In this document: in pieces, positions 6,826 to 36,638 of the stretch
Layout of the letters: every line of letters starts with the position of its first letter
Numbering within the stretch: position 1 is the stretch's first letter
From: a virus
IMG/VR virus record: IMGVR_UViG_3300034760_000013
Location: 1 to 63,820 of that record
Strand: one strand, 5' to 3'
DNA length: 63,820 nucleotides
Translations under genes and position numbers: made by a program
The notes under the pieces: generated by a model
Told to the model about the DNA's origin: nothing
Seen by the model: only the letters and a program-made list of their open reading frames with translations
The model's database searches: none

Positions 6826-6832
6826 GACAACA

Positions 6833-6853
6833 GCCGGGGCCTAGCGCCCCGGC
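6833..6853 (+). other. GC-rich stem-loop in intergenic region (possible terminator/attenuator without U-tract)
   Basis: GCCGGGGC-CTAGC-GCCCCGGC is a perfect 8-bp stem, followed by a CT-rich stretch. Confidence 0.4.
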
Positions 6854-6881
6854 CCCTCTCTCTCGATAGGAACACAGCCCC

Positions 6882-8085: not shown

Positions 8086-11000
8086 ATGGATGACATCCGA
8101 GCCCGCCTAGACGCGCTAAGGGCGGGAAATCCGCTCGCGTCCAAATATATCCCCGTGGATGAGCCGGTCGACTTCTCGTCGGAGCTCGTCCCGCCGAAGG
8201 CTTATCCGCAAGCCGAGAAGGGCGACTTTATCGACGAGCCCGTCGACTTCTCGTCTGAGCTGGTCGCGCCAACGTCTTCCGGATCTTCCTTCAACCGGGC
8301 CGTTGGCGACTACACACGCGAGTTTGGCAAGGGCGCCGCTCATGGCGCGACCTCTGCCGTGGGCAGCGCGGTTCAGGGCATCGATAGCGTCGGCAGCAGG
8401 CCGTCCACAATGGAGGGGATCGCTGGCGCGGCGTCTCGCCTCTCGCCTTTCAATCTGATCGACAAGGCGCTGAAAGGCGTCGGCCTGATCGATGAGACGG
8501 GCGCTGATGCCATGCAGCGCATGCGCGATGAGGCTCGGCCAGAACCTCGCAGCGACGTAACCGCCGGGCCGTTCTACAAGGCCGGCCAGGACGTGAAGAG
8601 CTTTGCCGACGAGCAGTTTCCCGCCGCCCCAGGATGGGAAGACTCCCTCACGCGCAAGGTCAGTGGAGCGCTCGGTTCAACCGTTCCACTGGTCGGCGTC
8701 AGCATGCTTCCTGGTGGTGTCGGGCTTGGCATGACGGCAGGATCTCTGATGAGCTCTGCCGAGGCCGTGGATCGCGCCGTCGAAGCAGGAGCCACCAAGG
8801 AGCAGATCGCCGAGGCGGGCAGGCAAGGTCGACTGGTCGGCCTAACCGAGCAGTTTCCGATCGAGGTGATCCTTGAGCGTGTCCCGCTACCTGCTGCTGG
8901 CAAGGCTATCAGCGCCCTTGGCCGCGTTATCGCCAAGGCGCTGGCAGAGGGCGGGCAAGAAGGCGTCCAGCAAACCCTCCAGAATTTGATTGAGAAGGGC
9001 GTCTACAATCCCGCGCAAGACATCTGGGAGGGTACGGCTGAAAACGCTGTGCTCGGTACGGTTGTCGGTGGTGGCATGGGCGTGGTGGGCGAGGCCGCAA
9101 CCCCGCGGCCGGGCGAACCGGCTCAGCCAGGACAGCCAGCGCCCGCTCGAGCCGAGCCGACCTTTGGCCTGGATGGCGAGGTTCTGCCGCCCGAGCCTGC
9201 ACCGCCGGCCGGACCCGGCCTGGACGCGCCTGGTCCGACGATCATCGACGGTGAGGTGGTGCCGCCGTTGGTTGACAGATCAGTCGGAAGTTCGGGTTTG
9301 GTTGCGGAGACGCCTGCGCAACCCGCCAACGCACCTGTCGCGCAGGGACCGCTCGGATTGCCGGACCCGTCCCTCGATGGCGAGATTCTTCCGCCTGCGG
9401 CACGCCAGGCTCTAGCCGGCCTGCTGGATCGCCCGCAGATCGACGGAGAGGTGAACCAGCCGGCGCCCGCCGCGCCGGACGAGACTACAGCACTGCCCGC
9501 GCCGACTCTGTCCGACAATGCCCTGCAATTACCGGCAACAAGTCCGCAGGGGCTACCCGCGCCGCCGGCACAGATCGCGCAGCCTATCGCGAGTGACAAT
9601 CAAGAAACGTTGTCTATCGCGGGACCGGCTTCCGTTGAAGCCAACGCAGCACCCCTGGTCGACGAGCCCCTCGACCTAAGCGACGAGCTTATCGCGCCGG
9701 TAGGTCTCGGCACCCGCTCCAAGCCGCTTATGCTTTCCGGGCCCGCCGCGCTCGAAGCTGCAAACCAGCGTGCTGCGCAACCCACAGTCGGCCAGGCTAA
9801 GGCCAACAACTACAAGCAAGGCCATGTCCGCTTCCCGCGGAAGAGCCCCTATGCCGGCATGGTCGTGGCGATCGAGACCCCAAAGGGCGCCGTCCGTCGT
9901 GACAAGCAGAACGACACCCCGCAATGGGAGGTAACGCTTCCAGCAACGTATGGCCGGATTCAGAACACCGTCGGCGGCGATAAGCAGCCGGTCGACGTCT
10001 ACATCGGTGACAATCTCGATTCACCGTCTGCCTTTGTCATCGACCAGGTCGACCCTGACACGGGTCGCTGGGACGAGCATAAAGTTGTAGTCGGCGCCAA
10101 CAGCCGCCAGGAAGCCGAGGCTATCTATGACGGCGGCTTCCAGGACGGCTCCGGCCCGATGCGCCGCGCTGCTGTCTCCGAAATCCCCGCCGGAAATCTG
10201 AAGGCCTGGGCCACGTCGGGCAAAGCCCGCCGCCCGTTTGACCGCAACGCTGTCGCCGAGTTCCGGCGGAATCGGGAGGCCATGAAGCCGAAGATCGGGA
10301 TGGATCCCGAGCGGATGATGGCGAAGTTCCCCATCCTCAAATCCCTGGCCGCGGAGGGTGGCGTCGACCCGAGATCTCCGCTGGCCGGCGAGCTGCGCAA
10401 CATGGGCGTCACCGAGTCCTTCGTGAAGAAGAACAGCTCGTTGCGTGGCCTCTACCAGCCAGGCGGCCGCACGGCGGTAGACAACTTCCCGGCTTCAGAA
10501 TGGGGCGACTATTTCCCCGAGCTGCAGGGGCAAGAGGACGACCACAACGGCTACGTCCCGCCCGAGTCGATGCTGGGCGCGATCCGTGACGAGACCTTCG
10601 GCGCACCCCGCCGCACACCTGCCGAGCAGGAAAAGATTGACGCCTATCGCGAGGCGATGGACGATGCCCGCAGGAGACATACCGATGCCGAACTCCAAGA
10701 AGTCATCAACGACGCCCCCTGGGACATCGGCGACGAACTCCGAAGCGACGCCTGGACCGACAGTGACACAGAAAGCTACCTGGCTAGCCAGGAAGTTTCG
10801 GCAGATGGCGGCGACCGCTACACCGGACAGGAAGCCGGTTTTGATGGAGACCAGCCGGAAGTTCGCGAAGGTCGCGAAGATGAAATAGAGCCGGGGGCTT
10901 ACGAGCCCGACGAGGAGGAGACCAGATCCCCGCCGCCGACTTCCTCCTGGATGGAGGAGCGGGAAGCCAGGATTAAAGCCTCCAGGGCGGCTGGAAACCA

Positions 11001-14000
11001 GCACCTCGACCAAGCGCAAGCCGCCGTCGAGACGATGCGTGGGCACGAGATATTCTCCGTCCATGATCCGAAAGAGCGCGGCAAAATCCGCACCGTCTCA
11101 AATGACGGCGACGTGGTCGTGCATTGGGCCGACAGCTACTCGGCACAGAAGAACCTGGCTCAAGAGAAGACTGAGAAGCGGGGCAGGCAGACTGTAACCG
11201 TCCACGAGTCCTGGCTGATGCCCAGTGACCTCAAGGATTACGTTTTTGCCCGTGGCTCGGTGGAGGTAGAGGCCGGTGCCGACGGCAAGGCCCAGACCGT
11301 CATCCCCGGCGCGGAGAAGATCGGCGACGGCAAACTCGCACAAATGAAGGCCGACACGCCGCTGCGTCCGCAGGCCGATCAGAAGCCCATGGACGCCGGC
11401 CTGTTCGGCGATAGCGCCGCGCAGACCGACCTCATGGACCTGGTTCGCAAGCCGGAGGCTGGACCGCCAGTCGAAATAATCGAAACGGCCGAGCAGGTTG
11501 TCGAAGAGCCTCGCGTTGAGGCTACCCGCAAGCCCGAGCGACTCGAGGATGCTGGCGCTAAGATCGGTGGCGCGCGGAAGGACCGCTGGCGCGAGCGCGG
11601 CCTGACTCTGGACGACCTCGACGGCATGACCGCCGTGCATGGCACGGCCGGCGGCGTGTTCACCAAGGAGACCGGCTACAAAGGCGATCCCTACCCGAAC
11701 GCCGAGGAGCGCGCCGCGATCAACGCCGCGTTTGACGAGCTGGTCGACGCGATGAAGGTCGACGAGAGCGTCGATCCCCCGGTTGTTTATTCGGCCCGCC
11801 GCGGCGCAGCGCCATCTCGCGCCAAGCTGGAAACCGAGATCGAGGCTATCGTCCGGCAAGTCGCCCCAGACTCGGTTGCGCTGGAGCTCCACGACAGCAT
11901 GACCGTGGACGGCAGCAACCCAGGCCTGAAAGCCTGGAACCTGCGCGGCCCACAGAAGATCGCCGGCTCCTACAGCTACATCCATGACCTGATCCGCGTC
12001 GCCATGGACATGGACCCGGTCAACACGGCTTTCCATGAGTCCTGGCACTCGATCGAGCGCCTGATGACAAAGGCCGAGCGGGCGCTGTTCGCGCGGGAAA
12101 TGCCGCGGCTGCGCTCAATCGCTGACCGTGATCTCGCCGACGGCGCGGCCGACATCAGCAAGGGCGAGGTGCTGGCCGTTGCTTTCGCAGCCTATTCCGA
12201 GGCGCGCTACAAGGGCATGCACGTTGGCGTGCGCCGGTTTTTCGACAAGCTGGCACGCATCATCCGCAAGGTCCGCAATCTGCTGCAGGGCTACAGCTTC
12301 AACACGGCCGAAGACGTCTTCGACGCCGCCTATGCTGGCGAGATTAAGGGCAGGGCAGGGGAGAGCGCGGCAAAGAGTGAAGCGCTATCCGCACGCCGCC
12401 GTCCGACCGCCGCGCAACAGCAGGCATCAGGCGCTGCGTTCGTCGCGCCCGAGCCGTCCAAGGCTCGCGACTTCCGGTTCAAGTGGCAGGACCGCTTCAT
12501 CGACATGCGCGAATACCAGCGCGCGATCGAAAAACAGATCGGTGCCGCACTGGCGCCCGACCAGGATGTCTATCGCTTCGAGGAGCTCTACCCTGGCAAG
12601 ACCGGCGCGCGCCTCAACAAGGTGCGCAGGGACCACGTCCAGCCGATCATCAAATACATGAAGCAGCACAAGATCTCCTACAAGGAGATCGGCGAGTTCC
12701 TCATGGCGCGGCACGCCCTCGAGCGGAACGCGCACCTGCGCAAGATGGGTTCCACCAAGGCGGACCCGTCGGGCATGTCAGACGCGGACGCCATGGCGAT
12801 CGTGCGCAAGCACCGTGCGGCTAACCGCCTGGCCAACTTCAATTCACTCGGCAAGCGCGTCGACAAGCTGATCGCTGAGACCCGTGACGGTCTGCTGCGC
12901 GATGGCCTCATCACGCCCGAGCAGCACAAGGACTGGGGGAGCACCTACAACTACTACGTCCCGCTGCGTGGCTTTGAGACCGACCCCGAGCACGACGAGG
13001 GCAACCCGATGGGCACGGGTAAGGGCTTCGACATTGGTGGACCGGAAGCCAAGGCGGCAATGGGCCGGGGCAGCAAATCCGACAACCCGCTGCTCTATGT
13101 CATCCTGCAGGCAGAGACCGGCGCCATTCGTGGCGAGAAGAACCGCGTGCTGCGCGCCCTGGTGCGCCTGGTCAAAGCGAACCCCAACAAGGACGTCTGG
13201 GAGATCGACCAGCATGAAATCCGCTCGCGCCGCAACCCGACCACTGGGCTGATCGAGACCTACCATGTCGGCCCGCAGGCGCTGAACGACGCAAACACGT
13301 TCCGCGTGAAGATCGGCGGCAAGACGCAGTTCATTACGCTCAAGGACGACCGCCTGGCGCGCGACATGAAGCAGCTCGGCGCCGAAGGGCTGACCGGCGT
13401 TCTCAATTTCAGCGCCGGGATCAATCGCTTCCTATCCAAGGCCAACACGTCCTGGAACCCCGCGTTCTCGATCCCAAACTTCTTCCGCGATCTGCAGGCC
13501 GGCATGCTGCACATGAGCGAGTTCAAGGTGCGCGGCCTGCGCACCAAGGTGCTGCGGGATCTTCCGGCGGCAACGCGCGGCATGTGGCGCTACACTCGCG
13601 ACAAGGACACCTCGACTGGCTGGGCCAAGTACGCCCAGGAGTTCGCCGACGCGGGCGGCAAGATCGAGTTTTACAACATGGACAACGTCCGCGATCAGCA
13701 GAAGAAGCTGGAGCGGAAATTGAAAGGCAGCGCCAGGGACAAGGCTCTCGCCGTGGTCGAGGCCTTTGAGGACGCCAACGGCGCGGTCGAGAATGCCATC
13801 CGCCTCGCGCTGTTCGTCAACTTGCGCCGGGCCGGCAAGAGCAAGGCCGATGCGGCCAGCGCAGCGCGCAATCTAACCGTCAACTTCAACCGCCGTGGCG
13901 CCAACGCGCCGACCGTGAACGCTCTCTACATGTTCTTCAACGCCGCGGTGCAGGGCAGCGTCCGCCTGGGCCAAGCTATCAAGCGGTCGCCCGTGAAGAT

Positions 14001-15063
14001 GGGTGCTGCGCTCGGCGCCATGGTCGCGCTTGGGGCAGTCGAGGACATGCTCAACTACGCTCTCGCCGGCGAAGACGACGACGACATGAACCGCTGGGAC
14101 AAGGTGCCGACCTGGGAGAAGGAGCGCAACCTGATCCTCATGTGGCCAGGCTCCGACGTCGGCTACAAGATCCCGCTGAGCTACGGCTACAATGTCGCTG
14201 TTGTGCTCGGCATGGAGCTTTCGGCGGTTGCCCGGCATTCGCTCGGCATGGGCCAGGGGTCCAGCGTGGCGGAAGCCACGGCAAAGATGATGAGCTCCTT
14301 CATGGGCTCGTTTATGCCGATCGACGATGGCGGCTCTGCCCTCCAGTGGGCGGCGCCGACGGTGGCCGATCCATTCCTTCAGATCGCCGAGAACACCGAC
14401 TGGGCCGGCAAGCCGGTTCACCGTCAGAGCTTCGACGAGAAAGATCCGAAGGCCTACCTCTACAATCGCGGCGCCTCGCCCTGGATGAAGGCCGCGGCCG
14501 AGGCCGCAAACAAGGCCACCGGCGGCAACGAGTTCAGGAAGGGCGCGATCGACGTTTCGCCTGACGACCTCGACCACCTCGCAGCATTCTTCACGGGCGG
14601 CGCAGGCGATTTCTGGATCAACAAGGTGATTGGCAGCGGCTGGAAGCTCGCCACTGGCGAGGAGATCCAGAGCTATCAGGTGCCGCTGGTCTCGAAGGTG
14701 CGCACGGAGGTCAGCTCGATGACCGACTCTGGCGTCTACTACGACCTGCGCGACGAGGTGCAGACGGTCGAGCAGGAGATCAAGGGTTTCCGCAAGATTG
14801 GTGAGCCTGAGAAGGCTAAAGCTGCAGCGGAGGCGCGGCCGGTCGAGACGAAAGCGATCAAGGCGTTCAGCGGCGCCGAGAAGCAGCTCGCGAAGCTGCG
14901 CAAGGTGGTCAAGGCGATCGACGCCGACAAAGACCTAACCAGCGCGCAGAAGCAGGCCAAGATCAAGGTGGTGCGCGAGCGCCAGGACGCCATCATGCGC
15001 CAGGCCCGAAAGGTCTGGGAGCAGGCGAGGGAAGGGGAGGTCGCTACTGCGCCGGCTCTTTGA
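8086..15063 (+). CDS. Giant (2325 aa) multidomain virion/ejection protein: pyrophosphatase-like segment, HExxH zincin motif, PLxRFG-type region, hydrophobic C-terminal part
   Basis: Single uninterrupted ORF. IETPKGAVRRDK...YGRIQNTVGGDKQPVDVYIGD resembles family-I inorganic pyrophosphatase. FHESWH at 12034-12048. YYVPLRGFE at 12961-12975. Repeated short motifs DEP(V/L)D(F/L)S.EL(V/I) occur 3 times and (I/L)DGE(V/I).(P/Q)P 4 times. Confidence 0.75.
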   Translation: MDDIRARLDALRAGNPLASKYIPVDEPVDFSSELVPPKAYPQAEKGDFIDEPVDFSSELVAPTSSGSSFNRAVGDYTREFGKGAAHGATSAVGSAVQGIDSVGSRPSTMEGIAGAASRLSPFNLIDKALKGVGLIDETGADAMQRMRDEARPEPRSDVTAGPFYKAGQDVKSFADEQFPAAPGWEDSLTRKVSGALGSTVPLVGVSMLPGGVGLGMTAGSLMSSAEAVDRAVEAGATKEQIAEAGRQGRLVGLTEQFPIEVILERVPLPAAGKAISALGRVIAKALAEGGQEGVQQTLQNLIEKGVYNPAQDIWEGTAENAVLGTVVGGGMGVVGEAATPRPGEPAQPGQPAPARAEPTFGLDGEVLPPEPAPPAGPGLDAPGPTIIDGEVVPPLVDRSVGSSGLVAETPAQPANAPVAQGPLGLPDPSLDGEILPPAARQALAGLLDRPQIDGEVNQPAPAAPDETTALPAPTLSDNALQLPATSPQGLPAPPAQIAQPIASDNQETLSIAGPASVEANAAPLVDEPLDLSDELIAPVGLGTRSKPLMLSGPAALEAANQRAAQPTVGQAKANNYKQGHVRFPRKSPYAGMVVAIETPKGAVRRDKQNDTPQWEVTLPATYGRIQNTVGGDKQPVDVYIGDNLDSPSAFVIDQVDPDTGRWDEHKVVVGANSRQEAEAIYDGGFQDGSGPMRRAAVSEIPAGNLKAWATSGKARRPFDRNAVAEFRRNREAMKPKIGMDPERMMAKFPILKSLAAEGGVDPRSPLAGELRNMGVTESFVKKNSSLRGLYQPGGRTAVDNFPASEWGDYFPELQGQEDDHNGYVPPESMLGAIRDETFGAPRRTPAEQEKIDAYREAMDDARRRHTDAELQEVINDAPWDIGDELRSDAWTDSDTESYLASQEVSADGGDRYTGQEAGFDGDQPEVREGREDEIEPGAYEPDEEETRSPPPTSSWMEEREARIKASRAAGNQHLDQAQAAVETMRGHEIFSVHDPKERGKIRTVSNDGDVVVHWADSYSAQKNLAQEKTEKRGRQTVTVHESWLMPSDLKDYVFARGSVEVEAGADGKAQTVIPGAEKIGDGKLAQMKADTPLRPQADQKPMDAGLFGDSAAQTDLMDLVRKPEAGPPVEIIETAEQVVEEPRVEATRKPERLEDAGAKIGGARKDRWRERGLTLDDLDGMTAVHGTAGGVFTKETGYKGDPYPNAEERAAINAAFDELVDAMKVDESVDPPVVYSARRGAAPSRAKLETEIEAIVRQVAPDSVALELHDSMTVDGSNPGLKAWNLRGPQKIAGSYSYIHDLIRVAMDMDPVNTAFHESWHSIERLMTKAERALFAREMPRLRSIADRDLADGAADISKGEVLAVAFAAYSEARYKGMHVGVRRFFDKLARIIRKVRNLLQGYSFNTAEDVFDAAYAGEIKGRAGESAAKSEALSARRRPTAAQQQASGAAFVAPEPSKARDFRFKWQDRFIDMREYQRAIEKQIGAALAPDQDVYRFEELYPGKTGARLNKVRRDHVQPIIKYMKQHKISYKEIGEFLMARHALERNAHLRKMGSTKADPSGMSDADAMAIVRKHRAANRLANFNSLGKRVDKLIAETRDGLLRDGLITPEQHKDWGSTYNYYVPLRGFETDPEHDEGNPMGTGKGFDIGGPEAKAAMGRGSKSDNPLLYVILQAETGAIRGEKNRVLRALVRLVKANPNKDVWEIDQHEIRSRRNPTTGLIETYHVGPQALNDANTFRVKIGGKTQFITLKDDRLARDMKQLGAEGLTGVLNFSAGINRFLSKANTSWNPAFSIPNFFRDLQAGMLHMSEFKVRGLRTKVLRDLPAATRGMWRYTRDKDTSTGWAKYAQEFADAGGKIEFYNMDNVRDQQKKLERKLKGSARDKALAVVEAFEDANGAVENAIRLALFVNLRRAGKSKADAASAARNLTVNFNRRGANAPTVNALYMFFNAAVQGSVRLGQAIKRSPVKMGAALGAMVALGAVEDMLNYALAGEDDDDMNRWDKVPTWEKERNLILMWPGSDVGYKIPLSYGYNVAVVLGMELSAVARHSLGMGQGSSVAEATAKMMSSFMGSFMPIDDGGSALQWAAPTVADPFLQIAENTDWAGKPVHRQSFDEKDPKAYLYNRGASPWMKAAAEAANKATGGNEFRKGAIDVSPDDLDHLAAFFTGGAGDFWINKVIGSGWKLATGEEIQSYQVPLVSKVRTEVSSMTDSGVYYDLRDEVQTVEQEIKGFRKIGEPEKAKAAAEARPVETKAIKAFSGAEKQLAKLRKVVKAIDADKDLTSAQKQAKIKVVRERQDAIMRQARKVWEQAREGEVATAPAL

Positions 15064-21342: not shown

Positions 21343-21579
21343 TCACGCGCCCTCCGCCCGGGTCGCCAGGAGATCGAGGCGCTTCTGAACCGAACTCTTG
21401 CGTCTGCCGACAGCAACCGCGACGGCAGCGAGAGAAAGGCCAGCGATGCGCATCCGCTCAATCTCACGATCTTCGTCGGCCGAGAACCGCCGCATGGTCC
21501 GCGTGCGGCCGGCAGCGTCCGTGTAGCTCATGGGGCCATGCGCCATGTCTCGCTCGCCGGTGATGAGGTGGTTGGTCAT
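21343..21579 (-). CDS. Small Myb/sigma-region-4-like HTH protein
   Basis: ATGA overlap with the upstream DUF1376 gene. FSADEDREIERMRIAGLSLAAVAVAVGRRKSSVQKRL is HTH-like. Confidence 0.55.
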   Translation of the reverse strand: MTNHLITGERDMAHGPMSYTDAAGRTRTMRRFSADEDREIERMRIAGLSLAAVAVAVGRRKSSVQKRLDLLATRAEGA

Positions 21580-22169
21580 GATTGCGCTCCCAGATCCCGA
21601 ACCCAAGATTCACGAAACCACCATGAGCCGCTAGGTGGGGCTCTCTGCCCATGCTCGTCGCTCCAGCGCTTCCGAAGCGCAGCCCATCGAGGGTCGTACG
21701 GCTGCACCTCAATCAGCCGCTCTTCCCCTTCCTCTTTCTTGCCCCCCAAATTTCTTTCTTTTTCTTTCTTTAAATGTGGTTGTGGTTGGTTAAGCCGGGC
21801 TTCGCTTTTGCTTGGCAGTTTGCTTAAGCCGGGCTTAAGCATTGCTTGGGAATTTCCCTTTTGTTTTCCGCCCTTTGCCCCGGCAGCGGCTCTTTTGGCG
21901 TATTTTTCCTGCGCGGATTTGAGCTCCTCGTCGATCCGCTTGTGTCGCCATTTCGCGTCGAAGAAGGAAGCAATGCTTGGCCGCGTTTCGGCCCATTCTT
22001 CGGGCGTCATCCGCACAATACGCGCGAGCTGGCGATCGTCCTTTGGAAGGCCGTCGTGCTGCCAATAATGGAAGATCAAAAGCAGGTAGGCGCCGTGCTC
22101 GGCCGGCCCCAAGTGTCCAGTGTCGGCTAGGTAGTCACCGACGTAAAATGCCATCCAAGGCCGCTTCAT
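21576..22169 (-). CDS. DUF1376 (YdaU-like) replication-associated protein
   Basis: N-terminus PWMAFYVGDYLADTGHLGPAEHGAYLLLIFHYWQHDGLPKDDRQLARI is the DUF1376 signature. The Lys/Glu-rich linker coincides with an AT-rich repeat region. Confidence 0.8.
   Translation of the reverse strand: MKRPWMAFYVGDYLADTGHLGPAEHGAYLLLIFHYWQHDGLPKDDRQLARIVRMTPEEWAETRPSIASFFDAKWRHKRIDEELKSAQEKYAKRAAAGAKGGKQKGNSQAMLKPGLSKLPSKSEARLNQPQPHLKKEKERNLGGKKEEGEERLIEVQPYDPRWAALRKRWSDEHGQRAPPSGSWWFRESWVRDLGAQS
21790..21857. repeat. Two tandem imperfect 34-bp direct repeats next to a pyrimidine/AT-rich tract (candidate origin iterons) inside the DUF1376 gene
   Basis: TTAAGCCGGGCTT at 21790 and 21824. TTGCTTGG at 21808 and 21842. 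Preceded by a CT/AT-rich stretch at 21722-21789. Confidence 0.5.
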
Positions 22170-22341
22170 CTTCTTGCCTCCTCAGGCGACAGCACTCCGC
22201 CACGACGTGCTGTGTGATCGTTCTTTCCCGAGCCGCCGCTTCCGCGATGATCTGCTGGATCTGCTCGGGCGTAAGTCTGAGCTGCAGCACCCGCGTCTCG
22301 CGGGCGCGCCTGTGTCTGCGTGCCTCTGCCGCCGGTGTCAT
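22135..22341 (-). CDS. Ribbon-helix-helix (CopG/MobC-like) protein
   Basis: 68 aa. Basic N-terminus followed by VLQLRLTPEQIQQIIAEAAARERTITQHV. ATGA coupling to the upstream gene. Confidence 0.55.
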   Translation of the reverse strand: MTPAAEARRHRRARETRVLQLRLTPEQIQQIIAEAAARERTITQHVVAECCRLRRQEDEAALDGILRR

Positions 22342-22673
22342 GCGGCCAGCCGGTGCATGCGGTAGTGGCCATGCCGTCGGCTCCCCTTACCGAAGCCCCT
22401 AATGGTGAGCCCGTGAGGCTGCAGGAGGCTTCGGAGCTGGCAGGCGTAGACCTTTAGGGAAGCGCGAGCCGAAAGCGGTCCCGCCTCCGGTCCTGGCCAA
22501 AGGACGCTCTGCAAAAGGTCGGTCGATACGTCCCGGCCGAAGTTCGCCGCCAGAACGCGAGCCATAATGAACGGCAGGCCGGAGATCCCCAGAAACTCGA
22601 CGATGCGATAGGGATCCAGGGAAGCCGCTGGGGTAGCCAGTTCCTGACCGCAGCAGGGGCAGCGCGCGGTCAC
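22338..22673 (-). CDS. Zinc-ribbon plus winged-helix (OmpR/trans_reg_C-like) DNA-binding protein
   Basis: CPCCGQEL at the N-terminus. C-terminal [30 protein letters not shown] resembles the OmpR-type wHTH. Confidence 0.55.
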
Positions 22674-22924
22674 AGCGGCAGCTCCGGCTGGAGCATGCCG
22701 AGCTCGCGCAGATATGCGTCGAGGACCGCCTCTGCCTCCTCGCGCGCAGCCTTGTCCAATTTTCGCAGCTTGAGCACCTGGCGCATGATCGGAACCTGGA
22801 AGCCCGATCCCTTGGCCTCTGCGAAGACGTCGCGGATGTCGTCCGCGAGCCCCTTCTTCTCCTCCTCCAGGCGCTCGATGCGTTCGATGTACGAGCGGAG
22901 TTGACCGTTGGTGCCGGCGCTCAT
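22670..22924 (-). CDS. gapR: GapR-like nucleoid-associated protein (DUF2312)
   Basis: [51 protein letters not shown]...LDAYLRELG aligns closely with Caulobacter GapR. Confidence 0.85.
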
Positions 22925-23691
22925 GCTGCCCTCGCTTTGGTCTGGACGGCCGCGAGCACGGCCGCTGCGACAGCGCGACCCATGGCCAACGGAACGCCGT
23001 TGCCGATGCCTGTTTTCAATGCCTTTGCGGTGAAAGCGCCATGCTCTCGCAAAGCATCGAGAACCGCCGTTGCGCCCTGTAGTTCGGCCATTCTGTCGAG
23101 GCTTTCCGCGCCATATCCCCTGTTCAGTGAGGAGGTTCGGCCGCCGCTTTCGTTGGGGCGTCGCTTTGGCTTACCCGAGCCCCCGAGTGCCACCGGGCGT
23201 CGGCGCATATCGCAAGTCACGGCCGGCTCGCCGCTGATGGCGTGGAGCGCAAGAGTCTCTATTTGTAATCGGCGACCGTCCGGTGTCCCGAGGCTAAACC
23301 GCCGGACCCGCTCGGTTAGACCACCACACCACAAGTCCCTGACAACCGCCTCGCGAACGATATAGCCCTCCGCGATGGGAGTAGGCGCGTGCGGGACATT
23401 CTCCATGAGAAACCAAAGCGGCCGCGCTGCTGCGACCACGCGCTCGTATTCTGGGATGAGGTTTGGGGCGGTCTGAAACCCGTTGGCTTCAACGATGTGC
23501 CGGAGCTGGGAGAATGCCTGGCACGGTGGGCCGCCGATCACGCCGTCGAAGCGCCCGGCCGGCGGGTGGAAGCGCCTGATGTCTCCGCCCCACAGCAGGT
23601 CAGGGCCGCGCACCACACAAAATCCCGCCTCCTCGAAGGCCATGTCGAGAAGCCCGATGCCGGGGAATAAGCTTAGGACCAGGCCGCTCAT
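22921..23691 (-). CDS. DNA (cytosine-5) methyltransferase
   Basis: Motif [10 protein letters not shown], motif [11 protein letters not shown], motif VI FLMENV, motif X GNGVP. Start chosen at MSGLV (ATGA overlap with the gcrA stop). Confidence 0.85.
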
Positions 23692-24146
23692 GGGCGTCTC
23701 CTCGGCGGTAGCGGCATGTGCGCGATCTCGTAATGGGTCTGGCAGTAGCCGCTCTTGGCGTTCAGCGGCGCGCCGCAGCACAGGCGCTTGTCGGCCGGCG
23801 TGCTCTCGATCCAAAGCGGCCAGGAGCATCCGGTCATGGTGGCGCGCGGAAACTGGATCGGCCTACTGTCTGGCGGCATGGCTGGAATGATCAAAGGCTT
23901 CGCCTCCCTGGCAAAGGCTGGCGGTTTCGGATCGCGTGGCGGCCTCTCACGAGGCTCTTTGCGTTTGCTGCGGACGATGACGGTGGGCGCGCCGCGGTTG
24001 CTCACCCCCAGACGATGCAGCTTGCCCAGCACGGCGCTGCGCGTGACGCCGCCAAGCACCTCGGCGATTTGCGAGGCGCTGCTACCTGCGCGCCAGAGCT
24101 GGAGTGTCAGCTCGATGCGCTCGGCCGTCCACACGGACGGCGGCAT
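23688..24146 (-). CDS. gcrA: GcrA-family cell-cycle transcriptional regulator homologue
   Basis: VWTAERIELTLQLWRAGSSASQIAEVLGGVTRSAVLGKLHRLG plus C-terminal CSWPLW...CCG...GYCQTHYEIAH match GcrA. The start is uncertain: the ORF extends to 24263. Confidence 0.85.
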   Translation of the reverse strand: MPPSVWTAERIELTLQLWRAGSSASQIAEVLGGVTRSAVLGKLHRLGVSNRGAPTVIVRSKRKEPRERPPRDPKPPAFAREAKPLIIPAMPPDSRPIQFPRATMTGCSWPLWIESTPADKRLCCGAPLNAKSGYCQTHYEIAHMPLPPRRRP

Positions 24147-24417
24147 TAGCGGCCGCGTTGGCGGCGAGCGCGATGGATACGACATGTGGATCATTGTCAT
24201 TGAGGGCCCCCGCCGGTGAAAATTCGACGGACGGGAGGATGCCAGGGAGGGGAACATCCTCACCGCCCGTCGTCACTGCGCGGGACTGGAGGTCGACGCG
24301 CAGGAACTGGCTCCAGAAAAGAGTGGCGAGGGCACGAAACCCCCGCCACCAAGTCGGGAGGAAGCCGTGTTTGCCGAAGGGAAGAGGCCCGACACGGCGG
24401 CGGATCTCGTTAGGCAT
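24082..24417 (-). CDS. Hypothetical protein (weak call)
   Basis: The ATG at 24417 overlaps the stop of the upstream small membrane gene by 8 nt. The tail overlaps the gcrA start by about 65 nt and looks low-complexity. Confidence 0.3.
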   Translation of the reverse strand: MPNEIRRRVGPLPFGKHGFLPTWWRGFRALATLFWSQFLRVDLQSRAVTTGGEDVPLPGILPSVEFSPAGALNDNDPHVVSIALAANAAANAAVRVDGRAHRADTPALARR

Positions 24418-24571
24418 GGTCGCGCTCTCGCTGTGAGCGGCGGCGGTCGGACCACTCGAAGCCAATGCCGAGCGCCAGGACGCAGGAGATCAGCGTGGTG
24501 GCGCCTACGACGGGGCCCCAGATGATCACCGCAGCCCATGCCTCGATGCCAAGAAGGATACCGATAGGCAT
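24410..24571 (-). CDS. Small (53 aa) membrane protein, not in the ORF track
   Basis: Manual translation gives MPIGILLGIEAWAAVIIWGPVVGATTLISCVLALGIGFEWSDRRRSQRERDHA: hydrophobic helices and a basic tail. It fills a gap in the operon. Confidence 0.5.
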   Translation of the reverse strand: MPIGILLGIEAWAAVIIWGPVVGATTLISCVLALGIGFEWSDRRRSQRERDHA

Positions 24572-24576
24572 GGCAC

Positions 24577-24840
24577 TTAGCCCTGCCGCCTAAGTGGCGG
24601 GAGCGGCTGCAGCTTGGGCGGGCCGATACCAATCGGGCAGAAGCGCCGGGCGATGACCGCGGCGGTCGTCCGCTCCAGGCCCAGGATCATCGCCTCCTGG
24701 GAAGCCTCAAGCTGCTCGACGCGGAGGTGATCGACGAAGGCCGTCAGGTCGTCCTCGAAGGCGGCCCAGAAGGCGTCCGGCATGCGGCGCGGGAAGGGAA
24801 CGATGGCGCCGCCGAAGTGGCAGGGAGAGGGGGTGTTCAT
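24577..24840 (-). CDS. Hypothetical early protein
   Basis: 87 aa. ATGA overlap with the cro-like stop. Coding-like composition. Confidence 0.55.
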   Translation of the reverse strand: MNTPSPCHFGGAIVPFPRRMPDAFWAAFEDDLTAFVDHLRVEQLEASQEAMILGLERTTAAVIARRFCPIGIGPPKLQPLPPLRRQG

Positions 24841-25046
24841 GCGGCCTGCTCCTTCGGTTTCACGAACTCGAAGTCGTTGGCCGTCACCGCTCCCTTGGTC
24901 TGCTCGATGATTGCTGCCAGCACATGCGGGCGGGGCAACCGCTGACCATTGGCGTAGCGGGAGATTGCGACCTGGGAGACGCCGATCTTCTGAGCGAAGG
25001 ATTCGTGCGTTTCACCGAGGGCTTCGAGATAATCTGAGAGCTTCAT
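24837..25046 (-). CDS. Cro-like XRE-family HTH regulator (probably leaderless)
   Basis: MKLSDYLEALGETHESFAQKIGVSQVAISRYANGQRLP. Divergent from the CI-like gene. No SD, and a -10-like TATACG ends 7 nt before the ATG. Confidence 0.75.
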   Translation of the reverse strand: MKLSDYLEALGETHESFAQKIGVSQVAISRYANGQRLPRPHVLAAIIEQTKGAVTANDFEFVKPKEQAA

Positions 25047-25053
25047 GTCGGGC

Positions 25054-25082
25054 CGTATACCAGTGTGGTATCGGCTTGACAA
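25054..25082 (-). promoter_or_regulatory. Candidate leftward early promoter (TTGTCA-N17-TATACG)
   Basis: Read on the minus strand. An operator palindrome sits between -35 and -10. Its -35 overlaps the TTGACA on the plus strand (25076-25081). Confidence 0.5.
25057..25071. promoter_or_regulatory. Operator palindrome ATACC-N5-GGTAT (copy 1)
   Basis: ATACCAGTGTGGTAT. Same half-sites as 25716 and 25741. Confidence 0.7.
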
Positions 25083-25091
25083 GTGCGTGAA

Positions 25092-25106
25092 ATACCGATT
25101 TGGTCT
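25092..25106. promoter_or_regulatory. Imperfect operator ATACC-N5-GGTCT
   Basis: ATACCGATTTGGTCT has one mismatch in the right half-site. It lies over the weak -10 region of the cI-side promoter. Confidence 0.45.
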
Positions 25107-25141
25107 TAGACCATGCGGCGCTTACAATTTATGCAAAGGGT

Positions 25142-25711
25142 ATGTCTTTGCTCCGCGAATTTCGGGAGGCCGCGGGTCTTTCGCAGGCTCAGCTTGCGGA
25201 AGCTGCAGAAACCTCTCAACCGCAGATTAACCGTCTCGAAACGGGAGTGCGCGTGCTTACCCGTAAATGGGCGCAGCGGCTGGCGGGGCCTCTTGGCATA
25301 TCGTGGCAACAGTTGCAGCCTGACGAACGTCCGGTACGGATCGTTGGCCACGTCAGAGCTGGCGCCGAAGCAATCCTCTACACCGATGGGAGCGGAGACT
25401 TTGGCGAGGCTGAGCGACCCCCTGGAGCTTCGGAGACAACGGTGGCTGTCTCTGTAAAGGGGGACTCAATGCGTGGTGCCGCCGAGGACGGCTGGCTGCT
25501 CTATTACGACGAGCGGCGCGACCCGCCGCCGGAATACGTTGACCCGCGCGCACTTTACGTTTGCGGACTTTACGACGGCCGAGTTGTAGTGAAAAAACTG
25601 CGCGTTGGCTCGAAACAGAACCACTATCACCTGATCTCGACCAGCGGCGAGCCGGAGTTCGACGTGCCAGTGGACTGGGCCGCTCGCGTAACTTGGATTA
25701 AGCCCCTGTAA
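25142..25711 (+). CDS. CI-like repressor: XRE HTH plus LexA/Peptidase_S24 autocleavage domain
   Basis: LSQAQLAEAAETSQPQINRLETG HTH. GDSM Ser and VVKKL Lys motifs. Ala-Gly in the linker. Start chosen at MSLLREF. Confidence 0.85.
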   Translation: MSLLREFREAAGLSQAQLAEAAETSQPQINRLETGVRVLTRKWAQRLAGPLGISWQQLQPDERPVRIVGHVRAGAEAILYTDGSGDFGEAERPPGASETTVAVSVKGDSMRGAAEDGWLLYYDERRDPPPEYVDPRALYVCGLYDGRVVVKKLRVGSKQNHYHLISTSGEPEFDVPVDWAARVTWIKPL

Positions 25712-28848: not shown

Positions 28849-29135
28849 GAGCGCCGGCCCTGTTTCCCCTTTCAGAACTGCGCCTACTCACCCGCGAGGA
28901 GGCGGCCGGCTATCTCAATATCAGCACCACCACGTTCGATGAGAGAGTCAAGGATGGTCGCCTGCCAGGTCCGTTGCTGGAGGACGAGACGCGCAGCGGG
29001 AAGGGCAAACACGGCCGTCGAAAAGGGTACCTGGGGCCGCTTCTCTGGGACAGATGGCTGATCGATCAGAAGATTAGTGACGTATCGCTGCGTCGGCGCA
29101 GCGAAGTGGCTGACGAAATGGCCGATGTCGCGTGA
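28845..29135 (+). CDS. xis: Excisionase / MerR-AlpA-like HTH protein
   Basis: LLTREEAAGYLNISTTTFDERVKDGRLPGP. Immediately upstream of and overlapping the integrase gene. Confidence 0.65.
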   Translation: MRAPALFPLSELRLLTREEAAGYLNISTTTFDERVKDGRLPGPLLEDETRSGKGKHGRRKGYLGPLLWDRWLIDQKISDVSLRRRSEVADEMADVA

Positions 29136-30205
29136 TCGCGCTCAGCCTGAAGCACCTGATTTCCGACAAGGATCGGAAGGGCAACGTGCGCTTCTACGTC
29201 CGCGTCGCGGGCGCAAAGAAGAAGCGCATCCGCGGCGAGCCAGGCAGTCAGGAGTTTATCCAGGACTATACGCGGGCCGTTGCGAGTGCCTTGACCGAGG
29301 CCGGGCGACGCAGCCGGCGCGAGGAAAGCGGCACGGTTGGCTGGCTGGTCGAGCGCTATCTCAAGAGCGGCGATTTTGCCGACCTGGACAAGGGCACGCA
29401 GGACCGGAGGCGACGCATGCTGACTGAGTTCAGCGAAGCCTATGGCGATCGCCGGGCCGAGCGCCCCCGCAAGTTCGTGGTCACGGCCATGGACAAGTGG
29501 AAGGCAGCGCATGGTCCGCACGGCGCCAACAACCGGCTGAAGGCCCTCCGCGGCATGTATGGCTGGGCTGTGCATCAGGAGCTGGTGGATCGAGACTCAA
29601 CGCGCGAGGTCAAGCCGTTCTCGCCGCCGAGTGAGGGCTGGCACACCTGGACGACGGCCGAGATCCGCAAGTTCATGGCCCACTGGCCGCTCGGCTCGGC
29701 GCCGCGCGTCGCCATGACGGTCATGCTCTGCACGGGCACACGCATCTCCGACGCCTACCGGATCGGGCCGCAGCACCTGCGCCAGCAGCACAAGGAGCAG
29801 CGCATCGTGTTCCGGCCAGGCAAGACCGAGGACACCAGCGGCATCGAGGTCAGCATCCCGGTGCTGCCCATGCTCGCAGAGGCGCTCGCAGCCGGGCCGA
29901 CCAGCGACCAGGCCTTTGTGGTGGCCAAGCGCGGCAAGGCATTCAGCTCACCGGAGGCGCTGGGCAATTCATTCAAGCGCTGGTGTGTGGAGGCGGGGCT
30001 ATCGCATTGCTCGGCGCATGGTCTGCGCAAGGGCGGGGCGACGCTCCTGGCCGAGTCTGGCGTGACCAGCTCGCAGCTCATGGCGATCTACGGCTGGACG
30101 AAAATGGAGATGGCCGAGCGCTACACCAGGAAGGCGGATCGTTCCCGATTAGGGAGCGCTCTCAGCGGTGGATTCGGGCTGGAAGAGGAGAGAGGCGATG
30201 AATGA
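29132..30205 (+). CDS. int: Tyrosine integrase
   Basis: TGTRISDAYR..., HGLRKGGATLL (HxxR) and YGWTKMEMAERYTRKADR (catalytic Tyr context). Arm-binding-like N-terminus. Confidence 0.9.
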   Translation: MIALSLKHLISDKDRKGNVRFYVRVAGAKKKRIRGEPGSQEFIQDYTRAVASALTEAGRRSRREESGTVGWLVERYLKSGDFADLDKGTQDRRRRMLTEFSEAYGDRRAERPRKFVVTAMDKWKAAHGPHGANNRLKALRGMYGWAVHQELVDRDSTREVKPFSPPSEGWHTWTTAEIRKFMAHWPLGSAPRVAMTVMLCTGTRISDAYRIGPQHLRQQHKEQRIVFRPGKTEDTSGIEVSIPVLPMLAEALAAGPTSDQAFVVAKRGKAFSSPEALGNSFKRWCVEAGLSHCSAHGLRKGGATLLAESGVTSSQLMAIYGWTKMEMAERYTRKADRSRLGSALSGGFGLEEERGDE

Positions 30206-30614
30206 TGAAGGAATGGAAGAGCGCCGCAGGATCAGAGAAGCCGCCGACAGAGCCGAAAGGAAATCAGCCGTGAAACCTAAGAAGATCATCGAGAGCAATG
30301 TCACCGAAATCTGGGCCGTGGACGAACTGCGAAACTACAGATCACCCAAGATAATGACGCATTACAGGGAGGCGCTAGAACCCGAGGCCCTCTACGCAAT
30401 GGCACTGATCGAGAAATGGGGCTTGGTGATGGGCGCGCCGGCAGGCGAGGACAGCGCAGGCCGCGCTATGGTCGGCCTTATGCCGGTCGAGGATATAGTT
30501 CAGCGCGGGTTTGATGTCGCGCGCCTTGCCTATTCCGAAGCTGGCAAGCGCGGGCTGGTGTTAACGCTCCCGTCCTACGCTGATCTGGCTGAAGCAGGCG
30601 ACGCCGATGGGTAA
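30198..30614 (+). CDS. Hypothetical protein
   Basis: GAGGAGAGAGG RBS upstream of the ATG at 30198. 138 aa. Confidence 0.55.
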   Translation: MNDEGMEERRRIREAADRAERKSAVKPKKIIESNVTEIWAVDELRNYRSPKIMTHYREALEPEALYAMALIEKWGLVMGAPAGEDSAGRAMVGLMPVEDIVQRGFDVARLAYSEAGKRGLVLTLPSYADLAEAGDADG

Positions 30615-31116
30615 CTTTCGGTTTCTACGCCGTGATGTCGACCGTCGTGGGAACCCGCGCTTCTATGTGCGTCGCGCCGGATGGCTCCAGGCACGACTGC
30701 GCCAGCCTTTCGGCACGGAGGAGTTTCGTGCCGAATATGAGGCCGCAGTAGCCGGCCTGATTCCAAAGCCGGAAAGGCCCGGCGACGCCAAATGCTGCGT
30801 GTATGTCGTTGCGGCGGATGAGCAGCCGATCAAGGTCGGCATAGCCATCGATCCGGCCGAACGCCTGAAGCGGCTGCGTAGCGGCAACCCTGCCAGGCTA
30901 CACCTCAAGGCCGTGCTGGAGACCACAAAGGACCGGGCCGTCAGGATCGAGCGGACCCTCAAAGCGTGGATGCGTGACTACCGTCTTTTCGGGGAGTGGT
31001 TTGACGTTCCGAGCGACGAAGCAATAGCCCTTTTGGACCGTGCAGCAGAGCGTTTTGGAGGACGAAAAGTCCCACTCGGTAGTCCCACTTTCAGAGGGGG
31101 CGAAATAGCCCAATGA
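30607..31116 (+). CDS. Integrase-N-terminus-like domain fused to a T5orf172/MUG113 (GIY-YIG-like) domain
   Basis: The N-terminus DRRGNPRFYVRRAG...FGTEEFRAEYEAAVAG parallels the integrase DRKGNVRFYVRVAG...PGSQEFIQDYTRAVAS. The C-terminal VYVVAADEQPIKVGIA..RLKRLRSGNP...GEWF is T5orf172-like. Confidence 0.7.
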   Translation: MGNFRFLRRDVDRRGNPRFYVRRAGWLQARLRQPFGTEEFRAEYEAAVAGLIPKPERPGDAKCCVYVVAADEQPIKVGIAIDPAERLKRLRSGNPARLHLKAVLETTKDRAVRIERTLKAWMRDYRLFGEWFDVPSDEAIALLDRAAERFGGRKVPLGSPTFRGGEIAQ

Positions 31117-31260: not shown

Positions 31261-31279
31261 CCACTTTTGAGGTGGCGTG

Positions 31280-31675
31280 ATGCCGGGGCCGAAAAACTGG
31301 GACGGATTGACCGTCAACGGTCCCAATTTGGAGACGCTCTGTAAGAGGCGCCCGCAGCGGCTTTGGCCGAAGGTTGGGGGCGTTTATTTCGCCGAAACGG
31401 AAGGGCTGGTGAAGATCGGCCTGTCAGCACACATCGCGTTTCGGCTTGAAGATCTCCGCTGCGCCTGCCCATTCGAGATCACTCTCCTGCATTTCGAAAG
31501 GGGCTACGAGCGCAGGGACGAGCGTCGCCTTCATCGGCAGTTCGATGAGTATCGCGTTCGAGGTGAGTGGTTCCGCTGCGAGGGCGAGCTCCTGTCGTTC
31601 CTGGTCGACAGGGGGGCCTACCTGCCGCCCAGGTTTTGGCCGACTAAGAGGCAGCGACTGGCGGTGGTCTTATGA
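31280..31675 (+). CDS. T5orf172/MUG113 (GIY-YIG-like) domain protein, paralogue of 30607..31116
   Basis: GGVYFAETEGLVKIGLS...RLEDLR...HRQFDEYRVRGEWF. GAGGTGG RBS before the ATG at 31280. Confidence 0.65.
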   Translation: MPGPKNWDGLTVNGPNLETLCKRRPQRLWPKVGGVYFAETEGLVKIGLSAHIAFRLEDLRCACPFEITLLHFERGYERRDERRLHRQFDEYRVRGEWFRCEGELLSFLVDRGAYLPPRFWPTKRQRLAVVL

Positions 31676-36197: not shown

Positions 36198-36358
36198 GCG
36201 CGATGAGGGGCATCGACGAGTTCGTCGACTTCCTGGACTGGCTAGGCACACGCGACATGGCCACGGTCTGCCTGCACTACGACGACTACCATCTGCTCAA
36301 AGACAGGCTGGAGAAGGAGGGCGCGCGCATCGCTTGCTGTTCAAGTGCGTGGGCGTGA
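36194..36358 (+). CDS. Hypothetical small protein
   Basis: ATGA coupling. 54 aa. Last gene before a 280-bp non-coding region. Confidence 0.45.
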   Translation: MSAMRGIDEFVDFLDWLGTRDMATVCLHYDDYHLLKDRLEKEGARIACCSSAWA

Positions 36359-36390
36359 CCGACCGACGCCAACCCGTTGGCCCTCTTGCC

Positions 36391-36637
36391 GAATCTCCAG
36401 GAGATGCCGCATAATATGCGCGGCAGAGCCCCTGTTCCTCATGTCGGGGGCCCTCCTTTCTAGGGTTATCAGGTGCCGGCCGCGATGTGAGAGTCCCTTC
36501 TCGCGGCCGCACCACCCTAAGACACTGAAATCACTACCAGAATCGTCTCGTCCCGTCTAAAGCTGTGCTCGTAGGGAGCACTGTTCGAGTCATCGGGACC
36601 GGCAACGCTTCGCCTCTCCCCATGACACAGGGGATTC
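36391..36637. promoter_or_regulatory. Non-coding region upstream of the late operon carrying five GANTC sites, two stem-loops and a TTGCCG-N18-CATAAT promoter-like element
   Basis: GANTC at 36391, 36491, 36540, 36587 and 36633. Stem CGGCCGCGA/TCGCGGCCG at about 36476-36508. GTGCTC-GTAGG-GAGCAC at about 36566-36582. Confidence 0.5.
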
Positions 36638-36638
36638 G

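Follow-up and report, generated by a model that had tools for sequence, protein, structure and literature searches.

GcrA and GapR play central parts in the alphaproteobacterial cell cycle and in the mechanics of the chromosome, and a phage gene block that encodes homologues of both beside a DNA methyltransferase raises the question of whether a methylation-reading RNA polymerase cofactor times the late genes of the phage or pushes its host into S phase. The block lies on the minus strand (24146–21343) of a 63,820-nucleotide stretch of viral DNA, positions 1 to 63,820 of IMG/VR record IMGVR_UViG_3300034760_000013, referred to here as the window. A sequence-only reading had taken it for a dedicated module for takeover of the host. 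We favour, at about an even chance of being right, the reading that it belongs to the cro-side early operon of a temperate phage with a CcrM-bearing alphaproteobacterial host, and that it helps the phage to use host enzymes for the replication and transcription of phage DNA. The basis of this reading is formed by the identities of the genes, their tight translational coupling, the divergent CI-like and Cro-like genes beside them and the recurrence of the gene set in other alphaproteobacterial phages.

At both ends of the window is an exact 127-bp direct repeat (1–127 and 63694–63820), a signature of circular assembly, and the window therefore represents a complete phage genome, 63,693 bp in length. 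Its GC content is 64%, and no tRNAs were found in it. The genome encodes a tyrosine integrase (29132–30205), a RecT-like protein and a large terminase, which together with a CI-like repressor carrying an S24 peptidase domain argue for a temperate lifestyle; judged by its ends and gene content, the phage is temperate, complete and circular. Nearly all genes lie on the plus strand, the exception being the block 25046–21343, which contains the genes in question.

Opening this block is the gene for a 69-residue Cro-like helix-turn-helix (HTH) protein (24837..25046, minus strand; Pfam HTH_3, E = 2e-8; PHROG transcriptional repressor, 1e-9). Divergent from it is the gene for the CI-like repressor (25142..25711, plus strand), comprising HTH_3/HTH_31 and Peptidase_S24 domains (Pfam HTH_31, 1.3e-11; Peptidase_S24, 7.8e-6), for which we infer a start at the internal ATG 25142; the CI side runs on into the RecT and integrase genes. 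All seven genes attributed to the block by the earlier reading are present on the minus strand between 24146 and 21343, each with a coding-type pattern of GC content at the three codon positions (GC1 high, GC2 lower, GC3 high). Start and stop codons overlap as ATGA at the junctions of cro with orf87, of the GcrA gene with the methyltransferase gene, of the methyltransferase with the GapR gene, of the winged-helix with the ribbon-helix-helix (RHH) gene and of the DUF1376 with the small HTH gene; the GapR/winged-helix junction is a GTGA overlap, and the RHH and DUF1376 genes overlap by 35 nt. Such tight start–stop coupling, beside a divergent CI-like/Cro-like pair, bears out the proposal of a single early transcription unit. 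The chain had also been placed directly downstream of the Cro-like gene; the coupling holds but the direct contact does not, as orf87, a 53-residue open reading frame (ORF) and a 264-nt spacer with a hairpin intervene.

In phage lambda, the genes of the PR operon are ordered cro-cII-O-P-...-Q, and the replication origin lies inside gene O. The block resembles this operon in its divergent S24 repressor and Cro-like genes, in having a replication initiator gene on the cro side that contains an origin-like element, and in a terminator-like hairpin soon after cro. It differs in that homologues of N, cII, P and Q were not found in the window, and in that the opposite strand carries the late genes, which read-through antitermination from the early operon therefore cannot drive. 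Because a divergent CI/Cro pair is combined with a primosomal-type DUF1376 protein and an origin-like element within the initiator gene, we read the block 25046–21343 as a lambda-PR-type early replication and regulation operon.

The DUF1376 protein (197 residues; 21576..22169, minus strand) matches PF07120 over profile positions 1–85 of 86 (E = 4.5e-22, 78.7 bits against a threshold of 30.1) and PHROG families of the ‘primosomal protein’ type (5e-29), in agreement with its earlier description as a replication protein, and is a probable replication initiator of the lambda O type. Located in the linker-coding part of its gene is a candidate replication origin (21750..21853, no strand assigned), where the GC content dips to 43%. 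This element contains two 34-nt direct repeats (21786–21819 and 21820–21853), a perfect 10-nt palindrome pair (TGCTTAAGCC/GGCTTAAGCA) and a pyrimidine/purine (homopurine) tract. By analogy with the lambda origin inside gene O, the origin is likely to lie inside the DUF1376 gene.

The GcrA homologue (152 residues; 23688..24146, minus strand, although ATG 24200 may be its start instead of 24146) has a Myb-like DNA-binding domain at its N terminus, joined by a disordered linker to a C-terminal CCCH zinc-finger domain of the sigma-interacting type. It matches PF07750 over profile positions 3–152 of 155 (E = 6e-22, 79 bits against a cut-off of 26.9) and Caulobacter GcrA across both domains (PDB 7ye1, 1.1e-17, residues 6–150), which upholds its assignment as a diverged member of the family. 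The model of the DNA-binding domain has a predicted local distance difference test score (pLDDT) of 94–96 and superposes on 5yiv with a template modelling (TM) score of 0.93 and a root mean square deviation of 0.5 Å, at 63% sequence identity to the Caulobacter domain; pLDDT in the C-terminal domain is 73–85. The invariant columns of the three-helix Myb-like domain (W6, R10, R36, G41, K42 and R45) are all kept, and the zinc ligands C107, C124, C135 and H138 are invariant in the alignment. Over the whole protein, the best identity found in a search of 5.8 billion proteins is 36–38%, and the score against the NCBIfam equivalog NF050816 (82.3 bits) lies below the cut-off of 280. Single-protein patterns found no close relatives in IMG/VR, and in representative genomes only host-type GcrAs, mostly from Sphingomonadaceae, matched the DNA-binding domain.

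Coupled by ATGA overlaps to the GcrA gene on one side and the GapR gene on the other is the gene for a small C5 cytosine DNA methyltransferase (256 residues; 22921..23691, minus strand). The Pfam match (PF00145, E = 1.8e-13, 51 bits against 22) spans motifs IV–VI only; motifs I (FPGIG), IV (PPCQ) and VI (ENV) align to M.HaeIII, and motifs VIII (RxR), IX (ELQG) and X (GNGVP) are invariant in the family. Across 22 homologues at 61–83% identity, the invariant residues are F9-G11-G13, P56-C57-Q58, E97-V99, R128-R130, Q205-G206 and G230-P234. With motifs I, IV, VI, VIII, IX and X present, the enzyme is therefore complete despite its small size, as had been claimed. It is an orphan, its flanks being the GcrA and GapR genes with no cognate restriction endonuclease adjacent.

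The GapR (DUF2312/UPF0335) homologue (84 residues; 22670..22924, minus strand) is matched by PF10073 over its full length (profile positions 2–72 of 72, E = 6e-31, 106 bits against 22.6), and this assignment too stands. It scores above the cut-off of the NCBIfam subfamily PRK13694 (109 against 94 bits) and below that of the equivalog NF052541 (91.7 against 140 bits), and matches GapR crystal structures at 6e-22.

The remaining three proteins of the block are small. Following GapR is a 111-residue protein of the OmpR/PhoB winged-helix type with an N-terminal CPCCG cysteine knuckle (22338..22673, minus strand), identified by its family profile only: alone, it has no Pfam match, Trans_reg_C included, and its single-sequence AlphaFold model is too poor to use (pLDDT 44). 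A word-based homologue search and a BLASTP comparison with the Trans_reg_C-like GcrA neighbour of locus L037 both came back empty. An exhaustive HMMER search collected 113 relatives, and 34 of 50 match Trans_reg_C (PF00486) individually (best 8.8e-10); the family profile matches the DNA-binding domains of RpaA, PhoB and BasR in the PDB (2e-7 to 3e-6). Within the CPCCG motif, conservation in at least 90% of 50 homologues is limited to C5 and C8, and a second knuckle pair is absent, so that a four-cysteine zinc ribbon is not supported and a single cysteine knuckle is left; of the ‘zinc-ribbon/OmpR-like winged helix’ described before, the OmpR-type fold is thus retained and the zinc ribbon is not. 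The 68-residue protein that follows (22135..22341, minus strand) is a probable RHH protein by its pattern of a β-strand and two helices, recognized by eye; its ParD match lies below threshold (E = 1.1e-3, 19.8 bits against 27.3), and PHROG and NCBIfam searches returned no match. Last in the operon is a 78-residue HTH protein (21343..21579, minus strand), by pattern similar to Myb and GcrA DNA-binding domains, for which HTH_38 is likewise below threshold (E = 2.4e-4, 21.2 bits against 27) and the PHROG match is to a transcriptional regulator (1e-3). For both of these, the latter having been described as Myb/sigma-r4-like, the gene is confirmed and the family match is weak.

To place the block among other phages, relatives of its proteins were examined in viral contigs. 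GcrA relatives are present on 365 IMG/VR contigs; the neighbourhood counts given here refer to the 80 best loci, with genes called by a GC3-based heuristic and with relatedness among loci ignored. In these loci, GcrA typically follows a cro-like gene and diverges from a CI-like one. Its co-directional neighbours include GapR (6 loci), DUF1376 (9), RusA and a LexA-type winged helix, and the OmpR-like winged-helix family of the window occurs in five loci. Within 8 kb of GcrA, 26 loci carry a DNA methyltransferase (11 of the N6_N4 type, 8 MT-A70 and 7 of a small phrog_799 type), and small C5 enzymes occur in two of these same loci. The viral partners of GcrA are thus mostly of the N6 type, and the C5 pairing in the window, singled out by the sequence-only reading as a departure from the usual N6 partner, is a less common variant. 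The methyltransferase adjoins GcrA in 12 of the 26 loci, against 2.6 expected from random gene position, and does so with four enzyme families and on either side; this excess is suggestive only. An ‘HPPCQ’ protein in loci L006 and L007 was unconvincing as a methyltransferase and was left out of the adjacency test. Related gene groupings are found on contig L097 (C5 methyltransferase-GcrA...GapR, on one strand) and contig L112 (HTH-GcrA-DUF1376-x-winged helix). The comparative data show that temperate phages of alphaproteobacteria repeatedly place a GcrA-type sigma70 cofactor, a GapR-type clamp and a DNA methyltransferase in a replication-side early operon.

Taken as a replication-side operon, the block suggests a division of labour among its products. 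The DUF1376 protein would bind the origin within its own gene and initiate replication, and the orphan methyltransferase would mark phage DNA for protection against restriction, possibly also as a signal. The GapR copy may clamp the DNA that is overtwisted in front of phage replication and transcription forks, stimulating host gyrase and topoisomerase IV, or alternatively aid late transcription in the manner of its T4 relative DsbA. The diverged GcrA would ride host RNA polymerase by way of sigma70 region 2 and activate a subset of promoters, of which the most plausible target is the phage late operon with its 440-bp upstream region and GANTC cluster, and it possibly also acts on host S-phase genes. 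Further phage-specific control would come from the winged-helix, RHH and small HTH proteins, and the hairpin 5′ of the GcrA gene may render GcrA and everything 3′ of it delayed-early.

A search for the element on which GcrA might act points to the largest clear intergenic region of the genome (440 bp; 36198..36638, plus strand), which lies ahead of the gene chain leading to the terminase. No homologue of a Q-type antiterminator was found in the genome; as this absence coincides with early and late genes being on opposite strands, we infer that a trans-acting activator would be needed, for which GcrA is a candidate. In Caulobacter, GcrA activates sigma70 promoters with a nearby methylated GANTC, around −20 or +2 to +30 (PMC4647560). 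The 440-bp region contains the only GANTC cluster of the genome, with five sites (36391, 36491, 36540, 36587 and 36633) in about 250 bp (P about 0.01 after correction for windows), and a sigma70-like promoter (36386–36415), the −35 element of which is overlapped by one of the sites; two hairpins were also noted there by eye. The region could be a methylation-sensitive late promoter and is a candidate target of GcrA. Genome-wide, GANTC sites number 83 where 145 are expected, and their median density is 1.40 per kb in GcrA-bearing loci (L001–L080) against 2.87 per kb in loci with the C5 methyltransferase but without GcrA (L084–L163; Mann–Whitney P = 3e-12), a depletion that fits CcrM-bearing hosts. 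On other GcrA contigs, the GANTC clusters inspected lie in varied intergenic places. Tight clusters were seen in L063 (1213–1500; eight sites in 300 bp, partly overlapping a called ORF), in L061 (1024–1220; five sites 5′ of a CI-like gene) and in L044 (4999–5284).

Several observations weigh against the reading of the block as an operon acting on phage DNA through these parts. By eye, only one of the five GANTC sites in the cluster fits YGAKTCK in full, and GANTC clusters occur in 8 of 73 GcrA loci and 3 of 71 control loci, a difference that is not significant. The phage GcrA itself is altered where it would touch methylated DNA and sigma70, as seen from the residue lists of structure–function work on the Caulobacter protein (PMC5887438). 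In the pocket for N6-methyladenine (m6A), N34 and I37 are replaced by S37 and L40, with R33 (R36) and G38 (G41) kept. Among the sigma70 contacts, K119, D124, F130, F132 and Y151 are replaced by S, I, R, C and H, respectively, and W120, Y142 and A150 are kept, with a conservative change of V149 to I; this comparison was taken from a HMMER alignment that is uncertain around a two-residue insertion. The spacing of the zinc finger is C-X16-C-X10-C-X2-H in place of C-X14-C-X9-C-X2-H, two and one residues longer. Owing to these changes in pocket, contacts and spacing, neither reading of GANTC nor binding of sigma70 is assured. The statistic for adjacency of GcrA and methyltransferase is not properly corrected for ancestry; a crude version by lineage, with GcrA clustered at 60% identity, gives 3 of 6 (P = 0.03) and is a weak test, as the DNA-binding domain is so conserved that most loci merged into one group. 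A second methyltransferase is also found in 23 of the 80 best loci of the C5 methyltransferase family, which makes such enzymes common in early regions of this kind.

The block may instead be directed at the host, as first proposed. A takeover, in which GcrA, GapR and the methyltransferase act mainly on the host, switching on its S-phase regulon, remodelling the topology of its chromosome and altering its methylation, resembles proposals made for the GcrA homologues of phages phiCbK (PMC3556154) and Atu_ph08 (PMC6630229). In Caulobacter, contact with sigma70 brings GcrA to nearly all sigma70-dependent promoters, so that a sigma70-binding phage copy would reach host promoters too, and the DNA-binding domain is well conserved between the two proteins (63% identity). 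We nevertheless consider a mainly host-directed role unlikely: the analysis gave no sign of host targets, the protein stands far from host orthologues both in identity (36–38%) and in its equivalog score (82 against 280 bits), its methyl pocket and sigma interface are altered, and the genes sit within a phage replication operon. Because this operon is of the cro-side replication type with an origin-like element, action on phage DNA is at least as likely as action on the host; the two are not exclusive, as a temperate phage relying on host replication would gain from both. Another conceivable role is that of a decoy, with GcrA binding DNA without productive contact to sigma70 and phage GapR forming mixed tetramers with host GapR, such that both proteins would stall the host cell cycle and division as dominant negatives. 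GapR acts as a dimer of dimers (PMC12185513), which makes mixed phage and host assemblies conceivable, and the five replaced contacts (K119, D124, F130, F132 and Y151) are important by mutagenesis in Caulobacter. Such a poisoning role is nonetheless very improbable, as the CCCH zinc finger, W120, Y142 and A150 are retained and V149 is changed only conservatively, the C-terminal model, of fair confidence (pLDDT 73–85), argues for a maintained binding surface, and the sigma70 of the host could have co-varied with the phage protein.

A different objection concerns not the target but the unity of the block, which could be a mosaic of independent accessory genes of an alphaproteobacterial phage early region, the methyltransferase serving purely against restriction and being uncoupled from GcrA and GapR. 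The C5 methyltransferase family is large and mobile: relatives of 60–83% identity occur in many contexts, the family is present on 167 viral contigs with GcrA within 8 kb in 5 of the 80 best loci, and two of three inspected contexts contain neither GcrA nor GapR. The gene order varies among the window, Atu_ph08 and L097, and phmmer finds no match to the C5 methyltransferases of Atu_ph08 and PBC5, which are of other subfamilies. Palindromes that may be restriction sites are strongly avoided in the genome (GTAC, 35 observed against 109 expected; CTAG, 46 against 110; CAGCTG, 1 against 30; ACCGGT, 0 against 18; ACGCGT, 1 against 13), which probably reflects restriction pressure in the host; GCGC and TCGA are over-represented, and the palindrome statistics of the whole genome give no indication of the target sequence of the methyltransferase. 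Opposed to this view are the joint occurrence of the same four gene families in phages whose proteins can barely be aligned and the adjacency of methyltransferase and GcrA beyond random expectation, with four enzyme families and on either side, and we regard an unlinked assembly as a minor possibility. The reading as a cro-side operon serving phage replication and transcription remains the one we prefer.

A more novel but quite doubtful idea is that the translationally coupled GcrA and C5 methyltransferase form a self-contained writer–reader pair of the phage, in which the enzyme would mark phage DNA and a GcrA with S37 and L40 would read the mark, or act independently of m6A, and steer host sigma70 RNA polymerase to phage promoters. 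In a more general form, phage GcrAs may have been repeatedly re-paired with methyltransferases of different families and their methyl pockets retuned. One lead is the adjacency of GcrA to methyltransferases of four families in 12 of the 26 loci; another comes from the two pocket residues, which were compared among 64 viral GcrAs, giving NI in 42, SL in 10, NL in 7 and SI in 5. Wherever GcrA is linked to a CcrM-type N6_N4 enzyme (nine cases), its pocket is the canonical N/I, and three of the four GcrAs located at or next but one to a C5 enzyme have a non-canonical pocket (the window, Atu_ph08 and L120; that of L097 is canonical). A Fisher test calculated by hand gives about 0.01–0.02 when kinship is ignored, and the correlation of pocket type with enzyme type is a lead and not a result. 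As a compact example of such a block, the genome, together with its relatives, also raises the questions of whether the methyl pocket of GcrA can be retuned to other marks and whether phage GapR serves phage replication; if the answers prove ordinary, the value of the comparison lies mainly in better annotation, for example of the GapR gene left unannotated in Atu_ph08 and many other phage records.

Located between the cro-like and CI-like genes is a 95-bp divergent promoter and operator region (25047..25141, no strand assigned; GC about 47–51%). A promoter-like element noted by eye, TTGTCA-N17-TATACG (25047–25075), stops 7 nt 5′ of the cro ATG, and the cro mRNA would therefore be nearly leaderless; a promoter scan did not flag this element, which is therefore given low weight. 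Covering its spacer and −10 element is an inverted repeat, ATACCA-N3-TGGTAT (25071–25057, by eye), which could be an operator. Downstream of cro are the ATGA-coupled orf87 (24577..24840, minus strand; GC3 0.90), without a family match in Pfam, PHROG or NCBIfam, and a gene predicted by translation for a hydrophobic, probably membrane protein of 53 residues (24410..24571, minus strand; GC3 0.79). The 264-nt spacer 5′ of the GcrA gene contains a terminator-like hairpin with a 12-bp stem followed by CTTTTCT (24313..24350, minus strand). The fold of this hairpin (24350–24322; −31.3 kcal/mol, z −4.16) was equalled in stability by none of 200 shuffled sequences, and it is a candidate for a tR1-like attenuator. 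A possible ORF of 111 residues (MPNEIRRR...; 24085–24417, minus strand) begins at the stop codon of the 53-residue ORF, contains the hairpin and overlaps the start of the GcrA gene by ~60 nt; its first two thirds are coding-like by GC3, its reality is uncertain, and Pfam, PHROGs and NCBIfam searches gave no homologues. Neither a terminator at the 3′ end of the operon nor a promoter between the hairpin and the GcrA gene was found by sequence scan.

Elsewhere in the genome is a giant virion protein of 2325 residues (8086–15063, plus strand), with a middle part similar to DarB and lysozymes. Its C-terminal part matches LPD5-domain proteins of short-tailed Stx-type phages, at 34% identity, as well as proteins of Burkholderia, Ralstonia and Vibrio phages, by which the phage may be loosely tied to podophages with giant ejected proteins, Atu_ph08 among them. 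Classification by the large terminase was abandoned, as its best identity to cultured phages is only 28% (mycobacteriophages). Just 3′ of the terminase gene is an Rfam DUF3800-IX RNA (RF02968; 41809–41878, plus strand; 50.4 bits against a gathering score of 36.8). Two neighbouring genes (30607–31116 and 31277–31675, plus strand) encode MUG113/T5orf172-domain proteins, a family also observed near GcrA in eight of the 80 best viral loci.

Copies of GcrA and GapR have been noted in phages before, and the papers found include no functional study of them. A close known system for the GcrA–methyltransferase pair is the Caulobacter CcrM/GcrA module (Fioravanti 2013; Haakonsen 2015; Wu 2018), with which the window shares a DNA methyltransferase and a GcrA-family protein of the same Myb-like, linker and CCCH plan. 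The Caulobacter enzyme is an N6-adenine methyltransferase of GANTC, whereas that of the window is a C5 cytosine methyltransferase, and the GcrA of the window has S and L in place of N34 and I37 and several of its sigma70 contacts replaced; in the Caulobacter papers, ccrM and gcrA are treated as separate host genes in a genetic module, whereas the phage pair is adjacent and translationally coupled. Among phage proteins, gp222 of phiCbK is also a Pfam GcrA member and was proposed to manipulate the replicative state of the host (Gill 2012, PMC3556154). In contrast to phiCbK, a large virulent siphophage, the phage of the window is temperate and carries GcrA in a cro-side operon beside the methyltransferase and GapR. 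For GapR, the nearest functional precedent is T4 DsbA, which has been called a GapR homologue and a potential activator of late promoters that may recruit RNA polymerase (Iyer 2021, PMC7824862). Both are phage-encoded members of the GapR fold, in the case of DsbA with a role in the phage’s own transcription, but the protein of the window is a typical alphaproteobacterial UPF0335/GapR and not a DsbA orthologue. Although GapR homologues are present in 79 phage records, almost all with alphaproteobacterial hosts, a paper of 2025 presents its phage GapR as the first. In existing records, the protein is labelled ‘hypothetical protein’ in Atu_ph08 (1027–1422) and POI1126 (6959–7219), and ‘DUF2312 domain-containing protein’ in PBC5 (6836–7237).

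The closest counterparts of the whole block are in two published genomes. Sinorhizobium phage PBC5 (NC_003324.1) has a divergent regulator/HTH pair, small ORFs and the order GapR-cytosine methyltransferase-RusA-DUF1376-TerS; it differs in its 751-residue methyltransferase and in having RusA where the window has the winged-helix and RHH genes, and a profile search did not detect GcrA in it. In Agrobacterium phage Atu_ph08 (MF403009.1), one co-directional block reads XRE...GapR-GcrA-x-C5 methylase...NERD-DUF1376-x-TerL, with GapR (PF10073, 4e-32) and GcrA (PF07750, 1.9e-10) recognized by the same families, and the phage is likewise of temperate type, with an integrase and a giant DarB-like virion protein and without a DNA polymerase. 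The paper on this phage annotated GcrA and the methylase separately and mentioned neither GapR nor a module (Attai and Brown 2019, PMC6630229). Just 5′ of its large terminase gene, gp12 (6282–7085) gives a weak match to the GcrA profile (E = 0.0016) and could be either a regulator or a small terminase, with an HTH resembling the GcrA DNA-binding domain. The Atu_ph08 block differs from that of the window in its order (GapR-GcrA-x-methyltransferase against GcrA-methyltransferase-GapR), in its methyltransferase of 621 residues and another subfamily, in leading straight into the terminase genes, where the block of the window is inverted relative to the late genes, and in proteins that, except for GapR, are too diverged for a phmmer match. 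The novelty implied for the combination by the sequence-only reading is thereby lost, the same gene set being already present in published genomes, though not described there as a module. As judged from these gene arrangements, the combination of GcrA, GapR, C5 methyltransferase and DUF1376 is not new but a further example of an existing gene set, a backbone that recurs in temperate alphaproteobacterial phages of this kind and to which GcrA is a variable addition.

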